A DNA stretch of 64,000 bases from Elusimicrobiota bacterium (GTDB taxonomy: Bacteria; Elusimicrobiota; Elusimicrobia; UBA1565; UBA9628), in the NCBI GenBank assembly GCA_003151975.1, contig PLZD01000009.1:65508-129507 (forward strand), written 5' to 3'. Below, in pieces: positions 6,262 to 6,348 of the stretch. The notes beneath the pieces are model-generated. The model was not told the DNA's origin. It saw only the letters and a program-made list of their open reading frames with translations, and made no database searches. Both the position numbers and the translations under genes were made by a program. Within the stretch, counting starts at the first letter, position 1. Each line of letters opens with the position of its first letter.

Positions 6262-6348
6262 ATGGTGTCAGACGTTCACTTTTTTCTCGTTCACTATTTC
6301 GGGCCCGCAAAAAGTGAACGAATCCAAATAGTGAACGTCTGACACCAT
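6262..6348. repeat. AT-rich nested palindromic element with four GTTCAC(T) half-sites between the nusB stop and the ligA start
   Basis: Perfect 19-bp terminal inverted repeats ATGGTGTCAGACGTTCACT / AGTGAACGTCTGACACCAT. Inner half-sites GTTCACTTTTT (6275), GTTCACTATTT (6291), AAAAAGTGAAC (6309) and AAATAGTGAAC (6326). A central CGGGCCCG. Local GC is far below the window average. Confidence 0.7.

Follow-up and report, generated by a model that had tools for sequence, protein, structure and literature searches.

An 87-bp palindrome with four repeated 12-mers at the nusB–ligA junction of an Elusimicrobiota bacterium, most likely a small inserted element

Introduction

Palindromic MITEs (miniature transposable elements with inverted repeats), such as the Correia elements of Neisseria, are found within operons, where they can provide or displace promoters, and RNase III binds or cuts them (PMC2649163, PMC2229807, PMC10969869). 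The long duplex of the Correia elements, together with RNase III, was reported to lower or process the distal message (PMC2649163), and in the ars1 operon an intercistronic hairpin was documented to lower the expression of the distal gene (PMC4562236). Inverted repeats are also recognized by AbiEi antitoxins, which bind two to four such repeats in their own promoters; in the characterized systems the repeats are bound by antitoxin monomers (PMC7319586, PMC3985639). Here, we describe an 87-bp palindrome that is located between the nusB and ligA genes in a 64,000-nt stretch of an Elusimicrobiota bacterium genome (GCA_003151975.1, contig PLZD01000009.1, positions 65,508–129,507). This whole stretch is referred to as the window, and coordinates are window positions unless a different contig is named.

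Like the Correia/CREE, ERIC/IRU, RUP/BOX, and REPIN-type doublets, the element is about 100 bp long, non-coding, AT-richer than its genome, and bounded by terminal inverted repeats. As with bacterial palindromic MITEs, it is placed in a short operon spacer, and its co-transcription as a long hairpin would be expected. On the other hand, it differs from palindromic MITEs in that it is present in a single copy in about 80 kb, has no family in the collections searched, and has no target-site duplication, while the known elements of this type are less regular than its two-plus-two array of identical 12-mers. It has no sequence similarity to known MITE families, as judged indirectly from blastn against plasmids and phages and from Rfam.

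The original prediction, which was made from the sequence alone, had considered the palindrome as an SOS/LexA-like multi-dimer operator of ligA, and had named a small MITE-like insertion or a bidirectional terminator as alternatives. As the data described below show, the structure exists and is striking, and by statistical criteria it is not random, yet it is unconserved and has a single copy in about 80 kb. Its most likely origin is the insertion of a small element, with displacement of the ligA promoter. Hence, the MITE-like insertion, which had been the secondary proposal, is the best fit with regard to the terminal repeats, the 87-bp size, and the lack of coding capacity beyond a single 26-codon open reading frame (ORF), although the target-site duplication is missing.

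Anatomy of the palindrome

The palindrome core (6262–6348, assigned to no strand) occupies the 93-bp gap between nusB (6351–6761, Pfam NusB), which is the upstream cistron, and the NAD-dependent DNA ligase gene ligA (4266–6257, identified by Pfam), which is the downstream one. Both genes are on the minus strand, which corrects the original prediction. The junctions of the element are clean, with 2 nt separating it from nusB and 4 nt, rather than the 5 bp given previously, separating it from the ligA ATG. The sequence check agreed with the predicted extent of the palindrome and with its perfect 19-bp terminal inverted repeats, which are ATGGTGTCAGACGTTCACT at 6262–6280 and its reverse complement at 6330–6348. 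These two sites are the only matches to the 19-bp end in the 64-kb window, even when three mismatches are allowed, while the chance expectation is 0.01. In an inverted-repeat scan the palindrome was the strongest inverted repeat of the window by a wide margin. Past a 2-nt mismatch the pairing continues for four more A/T pairs (ATAA at 6256–6259 with TTAT at 6351–6354), and the extended palindrome is 99 bp long (6256–6354, no strand), has 29-nt arms that are 90% complementary, and includes the stop codon of nusB as well as the A and T of the ligA ATG.

Inside the palindrome there are four copies of the 12-mer CGTTCACTWTTT, two of them direct and two inverted, which are interleaved as A(T), B(A), A′, B′. 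The 12-mer A (CGTTCACTTTTT, 6273–6284) and the 12-mer B (CGTTCACTATTT, 6288–6299) are on the plus strand, while A′ (6309–6320) and B′ (6326–6337) are, respectively, CGTTCACTTTTT and CGTTCACTATTT in the minus-strand reading. The outer inverted repeat ATGGTGTCAGA lies outside the first 12-mer on the left (6262–6272, plus strand), and is found again in the minus-strand reading on the right (6338–6348). The palindrome continues through its own center, CGGGCCCG (6301–6308, no strand), so that there is no true loop. The four GTTCAC half-sites and the interleaved inverted pairs noted originally were therefore found as described, in the order A, B, A′, B′, but their spacing was not the predicted 18–19 bp. 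The half-sites start at 6274, 6289, 6314, and 6331, which gives spacings of 15, 25, and 17 bp and a geometry of 0/15/40/57 that is unequal between the two arms.

The differences between the arms are not distributed uniformly (Fisher p = 3e-5 when indel columns are included, and 8e-4 for substitutions alone). The arms are identical in the 11-bp outer repeat, in positions 1–8 and 10–12 of the 12-mers, and in the center, while the arm spacers, TCT versus GGATT, are unrelated, and position 9 is the only one that differs within the 12-mers. A simple inverted duplication that decayed would not leave conserved 12-mers with free spacers. This pattern favors putative binding sites, and points to the arrangement expected when a sequence-specific protein binds DNA, either at mobile-element ends or at an operator.

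The palindrome is the most AT-rich 87-bp stretch of the window, with 40–44% GC versus 64% overall. However, as a correction to the original prediction, other promoter-bearing spacers go down to 41–44% GC, and it is the palindromic structure alone that sets the element apart. If the 87 bp are excised, the sequence becomes TAA-TC|CCTT-ATG, which is an ordinary tight operon junction. This anatomy is seen directly in the DNA, and the element is base-for-base identical in four independent assemblies (ENA, JGI, Logan), which means that it is not an assembly artifact. One of the Logan contigs (L003) is identical to the window save for 33 substitutions at 7341–7533, in about 190 bp of ribBA; this block stems either from recombination with a related strain or from chimeric assembly.

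The ligA loci of relatives

The ligA loci of five relatives (L005, L007, L008, L132, and L133), with LigA identities of 68–78%, were compared with the window; the nearest relative by LigA among about 5.8 billion proteins was 78% identical, and the LigA homologs assign the window to an Elusimicrobiota lineage of high GC content. The palindrome was absent upstream of ligA in all five. In four of them (L007, L008, L132, and L133) the motif tcgcTATACTcg is located 7–12 nt before the ligA ATG, where it appears to be a conserved leaderless-type ligA promoter. The ligA gene of the genome studied here is without this conserved motif, and has the palindrome in its place. Its start is preceded neither by a Shine–Dalgarno-like sequence nor by a TATAAT/TATACT box.

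The gene content of this region also varies. One extra gene is present between nusB and ligA in L133 and two are present in L007, while in L005, L008, and L132 the ligA gene has other upstream neighbors or is located on a short contig. The intervening genes of the relatives are glycoside hydrolase-like, SLT-domain, and, in one case, of unknown type. Taken together, the absence of the palindrome in the relatives, the loss of the promoter, and the variable interval suggest a lineage-specific insertion or replacement at the promoter position, which would have removed the ligA gene's own promoter. In one of the relatives, L007 (GCA_016194705.1), a different 40-bp palindrome, TTGTCTCAATTTTGGACCATATGGTCCAAGACTGAGACAA (2383–2425 of its contig), is located in the intergenic region of a divergent gene arrangement, about 60–100 bp upstream of the ligA promoter, and shows no homology to the element of the window.

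TATAAT or TATACT boxes are found 5–6 nt before the ATG of many genes in the window, as at 12507–12513 and 34340–34346 on the plus strand, and at 41363–41369, 45344–45350, and 60026–60032 on the minus strand. A box of this kind is located 8 nt from the ATG of purH (4231–4237, minus strand), and some of the genes with such a box also bear a TTGACA-like −35 box. The positions of these boxes suggest that leaderless mRNAs could be common in this Elusimicrobiota lineage.

The proposed insertion and the evidence that weighs against it

The explanation that we tentatively prefer is a lineage-specific insertion of a small MITE-like palindrome with four putative protein-binding 12-mers, which displaced the ligA promoter and would now be co-transcribed as a long hairpin. 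The element would be a loop-less, non-coding DNA palindrome built as the two ends of a miniature mobile element, with each arm consisting of an 11-bp terminal inverted repeat followed by two 12-mers CGTTCACTWTTT. The four 12-mers would serve as sites for one sequence-specific DNA-binding protein, such as a transposase, a recombinase, or a repressor, which would be encoded elsewhere.

Several results weigh against this explanation. Neither the 64-kb window nor some 15 kb of further flank from the same contig contained a second copy, and the element is unique within about 80 kb of this genome. The arm 19-mer had no true match in 185,579 representative genomes, which do not include the source genome; the exact scan returned three single-arm chance matches in unrelated Proteobacteria. 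Viral contigs contained neither a copy of the arm nor the tandem 12-mers, and blastn against plasmids and phages gave no match. Hence, the search for more copies of the 19-bp repeat, which had been proposed to distinguish a MITE from an operator, returned none beyond the element itself in any of these collections. There is no target-site duplication; the flanks are AATC|...|CCTT, and their sole repeat is an uninformative AT that is itself part of the palindrome. No transposase, recombinase, or integrase gene was found among the annotated ORFs, which cover all but a few of the ORFs of the window and of which several had no Pfam match. The nusB and ligA genes are not adjacent in any of the relatives, which leaves the comparison without a true empty site, and the assembled contigs with the element represent essentially one strain, so that there is no variation for a test of selection. 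Additionally, co-transcription, processing, and translational hand-over, which are considered below, are inferred from sequence logic only.

One of the three chance matches to the 19-mer, at 4982–5010 of a Rhodobacteraceae contig (L010), contains GTTCACTTTTTGTTC, which has the GTTC-N7-GTTC arrangement of the alphaproteobacterial LexA box. This geometry is absent from the window element.

Folding of the element and its possible effect on ligA

The predicted folding energies of the element were −50.5 kcal/mol for the minus-strand RNA, −49.8 kcal/mol for the plus-strand RNA, and −32.1 kcal/mol for DNA. The corresponding z-scores were close to −9 on either strand (−9.1 to −9.7), and none of 200 shuffled sequences was equally stable. 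About 40 bp are paired in the stem, with 25 A-U versus 15 G-C pairs. There is no strand asymmetry, because both strands fold equally well, with at most one G-U pair and without a loop. The equal fold of both strands, the scarcity of G-U pairs, and the loop-less center point to an origin at the level of DNA rather than to an evolved RNA. An H-type pseudoknot formed by the interleaved A:A′ and B:B′ pairs was also considered, and was ruled out on steric grounds, since 12-bp stems would have to be joined by a 3-nt connecting loop.

The location of the element suggests how ligA could be transcribed. The only promoter-like site nearby, TAGACA-18-GAAAAT (6353–6382, minus strand), matches the consensus in nine of 12 positions. 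It is located in the 3′ end of nusB and ends 4 nt before the element; a transcript that started there would have its 5′ end at the first bases of the palindrome. No hexamer inside the element both has A as its second and T as its sixth base and is usably spaced from the ATG, and a promoter within it was rejected. Because the promoter-like site is weak and lies within the nusB 3′ end, the transcription of ligA would have to pass through the element. Since the element is found at the position of the relatives' promoter, ligA would thus be the distal cistron of a ribD-HTH-ribE-ribBA-ribH-nusB transcription unit, and the element, transcribed together with nusB, would fold into a stem of about 40 bp with a stability of about −50 kcal/mol.

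The upstream part of this unit is compact. The genes ribBA, ribH, and nusB overlap in this order, with nusB at the end, by 4 nt between ribBA and ribH and by 8 nt between ribH and nusB; overlaps of 4–8 nt are a usual sign of translational coupling. In the predicted fold, the nusB UAA is paired with the UUA that precedes and overlaps the ligA AUG, and the nusB stop would thus face the ligA start at the base of the stem. The two genes are also bridged by the 26-codon ORF (6268–6348, minus strand), with 2 nt between the nusB UAA and its AUG and 10 nt between its UGA and the ligA AUG. This ORF was called by the gene caller on one contig (L004), and it could be a by-product, because the palindrome opens with ATG and its length is a multiple of three. 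The upstream overlaps, the lack of a Shine–Dalgarno sequence before ligA, the stop–start pairing, and the bridging ORF suggest that ligA could be translated by ribosomes handed on from nusB, either directly or through the 26-codon ORF; a ribosome on this ORF would unzip the whole stem. The long duplex may also act as a partial barrier or as an RNase III-type processing site, which would keep ligA expression below that of rib-nusB. A full version of this model, in which a mobile palindrome rewired the essential ligA gene from a leaderless promoter to ribosome hand-over from nusB, across a hairpin bridge that faces the stop and start codons and that is unzipped by a 26-codon relay ORF, is a speculative one, and we consider it improbable as a whole.

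The putative duplex can be compared with intercistronic RNase III sites, such as those of the T7 early region and the rpsO-pnp leader, and with REP stabilizers. In these, as in the window element, a duplex longer than 20 bp is located between cistrons, and internal 1×1 and asymmetric loops break the long stem; in contrast to them, the element is unconserved and the palindrome is loop-less. A different candidate, a boxA-like NusB site, was suggested by the fact that the 12-mer begins with GUUC, and was rejected because in a by-eye comparison only four of nine positions matched the boxA consensus.

If the proposed insertion is correct, this locus is a clean natural case of a tiny palindromic insertion that altered the expression of an essential replication gene, and ligA moved from its own leaderless promoter to reliance on the upstream operon. 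The organism is from a phylum without a genetic system. The element would also be a compact test case for hairpin-bridged translational coupling. The wider significance of a single unconserved element from one uncultured lineage is limited, and its interest is local.

A possible operator in place of an inserted element

An unlikely alternative to the insertion is a stand-alone operator, in which the 12-mers bind a trans-acting and possibly damage-responsive repressor that controls ligA, either by blocking the promoter in the nusB 3′ end or by acting as a roadblock. The four near-identical 12-mers with free spacers agree with this explanation, and so does the weak promoter-like TAGACA-18-GAAAAT sequence that ends just before the element. 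On the other hand, the roughly 80 kb contain neither another site nor another cluster. The GTTCAC/GTGAAC hexamer occurs 18 times in 64 kb, which is near the background of about 20 estimated by hand from base composition, and the element is the only cluster. Neither LexA nor AbiE genes were found among the annotated ORFs of the window, none of these ORFs was identified as recA, lexA, uvrA, or dinB, and the sole candidate regulator was an Xre-type helix-turn-helix (HTH) gene within the rib operon. Moreover, the element is unconserved in the relatives, and four of the five have what appears to be a plain promoter at this position. The original prediction was to be refuted if the palindrome was absent from the nusB–ligA junctions of close relatives and occurred nowhere else in the genome, and by this criterion the regulon interpretation is weakened, as far as the five relatives and about 80 kb of this genome are concerned.

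The specific proposal of an SOS/LexA-like operator was not supported by the spacing of the half-sites, the frequency of GTTCAC, the search for a regulator, or the relatives. LexA boxes have the geometries CTGT-N8-ACAG, GAAC-N4-GTTC, and GTTC-N7-GTTC. They share the GTTC/GAAC tetranucleotides with the element, but differ in spacing and orientation. The direct repeats of the element are spaced as GTTC-N11-GTTC and GTTC-N13-GTTC, and GAAC-N4-GTTC does not occur; this spacing fits none of the three LexA geometries, and the window gives no sign of a regulon.

A closer analogy is provided by arrays found in metagenomes. The scan with the pattern GTTCACTWTTT-N5-30-AAAWAGTGAAC returned more than 120 heterogeneous loci, and among the matches listed none was like the element beyond the search pattern itself. 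Seven loci among the listed matches had exact GTTCA at 0 and +17 and TGAAC at +29 and +46, forming a 51-bp array with the consensus GTTCACTWTTT-N6-GTTCAC-N5/6-GTGAAC-N6-AAAWAGTGAAC, while in a few more of the listed loci the array was incomplete or was found at another place nearby. The array is located directly upstream of AbiEi_2/AbiEii pairs, twice over in L042 (9414–9536), L088 (1769–1952), and L093 (4399–4516), and once in L096 (2429–2479). Further array loci were L027, L029, L073, L074, L080, L116, and L120. Some of the arrays are in intergenic DNA without a nearby abiE gene, as in L074, where the array lies between an LptD-like gene and a histidine kinase gene, while in L073 it is near an AbiGi-like gene. 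At several loci the spacers co-vary, so that the full palindrome is kept. A related two-half-site arrangement in L098 adjoins a DUF6088/AbiEi_4 gene, which has an IS200-like transposase gene near it.

The arrays next to abiE genes agree with the published binding of AbiEi antitoxins to the repeats of their own promoters (PMC7319586, PMC3985639), and the 51-bp array is probably the operator of this AbiEi subfamily. More generally, GTTCAC-type arrays appear from their locations to serve as protein-binding sites in mobile and defense contexts. For the operator explanation this means that GTTCACTWTTT layouts with two direct and two inverted half-sites are probably genuine operators elsewhere, at the AbiEi_2/AbiEii pairs of L042, L088, L093, and L096 and at the DUF6088/AbiEi_4 gene of L098, and that binding of AbiEi-type antitoxins to two to four inverted repeats is known (PMC7319586). 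The AbiEi operators and the window element share four half-sites, two of them direct and two inverted, and the outer half-site GTTCACTWTTT. However, this likeness of the half-sites was imposed by the search pattern and is not independent evidence. The recurrent geometry of the AbiEi operators is 0/17/29/46, as compared to 0/15/40/57 in the element, which has no abiE genes beside it and has the housekeeping genes nusB and ligA as neighbors. No AbiEi_2 homolog was found in the window with a profile built from four AbiEi_2 proteins. Hence, the relation of the element to the AbiEi arrays would be one of functional analogy and not of membership.

Other repeats of this kind were also observed. On phage-like contigs of about 41 kb, clusters of GTTCACTTTTTT with at least six half-sites in about 250 bp adjoin a 399-aa helicase-like gene (L070, 29–195; L113, 4086–4300; L135–L137; L140), and resemble an iteron-type origin of replication. 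In L056, an iteron-like non-coding region contains a similar tandem, GTTCACTTTTTT-N3-TTCACTATTT.

A relic, an RNA element, or a terminator as less probable explanations

It is rather improbable that the palindrome is a relic of a module, such as a toxin–antitoxin or defense cassette, that was once located between nusB and ligA and was deleted except for its operator or recombination site. The interval holds differing genes among the relatives, which is consistent with this idea, and similar arrays elsewhere are found in mobile or defense modules, including AbiEi_2/AbiEii, AbiGi, DUF6088/AbiEi_4 with the IS200-like transposase, and the phage-like clusters adjacent to helicase genes. The inner pair of the element (12-mer, 9 bp, 12-mer) also resembles a recombinase core site in its layout. 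However, the clean junctions of 2 nt and 4 nt contain no remnant of a flanking gene, and the intervening genes of the relatives are not toxin–antitoxin or defense genes. Additionally, an unselected relic should decay evenly, yet the 12-mers are intact.

We also find it doubtful that an RNA element evolved in place as an intercistronic attenuator, an mRNA stabilizer, or an RNase III site, with the repeated 12-mers being incidental. The position between co-directional operon genes and the extreme stability of the stem, about −50 kcal/mol, would fit such a role, for which the hairpin of the ars1 operon is a documented example (PMC4562236). On the other hand, the lack of G-U asymmetry and of a loop, and the equal stability of both strands, are not in agreement with an RNA origin, and base pairing alone leaves the repeat-and-spacer pattern unexplained. 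No homolog of the element is present in the relatives, and no match to Rfam at the gathering threshold was found anywhere in the window. A permissive Rfam scan of 6150–6450 gave only generic miRNA-hairpin matches far below the threshold. A search of the window for tRNA and tmRNA genes returned none.

We regard an intrinsic terminator, whether bidirectional or of nusB, as highly improbable. A strong hairpin is located directly past the nusB stop codon and is followed on the plus strand by the U-rich run GAUUAUUUUCC. However, this run, which had been noted before as a T-rich tract, equals the antisense of the last nusB codons, the plus strand is here antisense to both ligA and nusB and has no gene to terminate, the transcribed minus strand has CCUUAUGAAGAAG (CCUUAUG) past the hairpin and no U-tract, the site was not called by the terminator scan, the long stem of about 40 mostly A-U pairs differs from the short GC-rich stem of the clear terminator of this genome, and termination at this site would leave the essential ligA gene without a visible promoter. 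The clearest canonical bidirectional terminator of the window, at 26366–26410 (AAAAGAAAGGCCCCCGAGCTC / GAGCCCGGGGGCCTTTGGTTT), combines a stem that is short and GC-rich with A and T tracts on its flanks.

Neighboring genes and other features

The gene order on the 5′ side of nusB is ribH, ribBA, ribE, the Xre-type HTH gene, and ribD, while purH is located downstream of ligA. The Xre-type gene (9033–9356, minus strand; HTH_3/HTH_31) encodes 107 aa and lies within the riboflavin operon, with ribD and ribE on either side. The region upstream of this gene, 9357–9395, contains GACA-N-TGTC inverted repeats (TTGACAATATGTCTAATCCGACATACACTGTC, minus strand). No flavin mononucleotide riboswitch was detected in the window by Rfam, and therefore the regulation of the rib genes may be protein-based in this genome.

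Beyond the start of the window, a contig (L134, 17335–21992) contains three radical-SAM genes, a PqqD-like gene, a UbiA prenyltransferase gene, and a 38-aa ORF, and this cluster looks like a peptide-modification locus of the type that makes ribosomally synthesized and post-translationally modified peptides. It is adjoined by two paralogous caspase-like (Peptidase_C14) genes, which are 82% identical over 774 nt.

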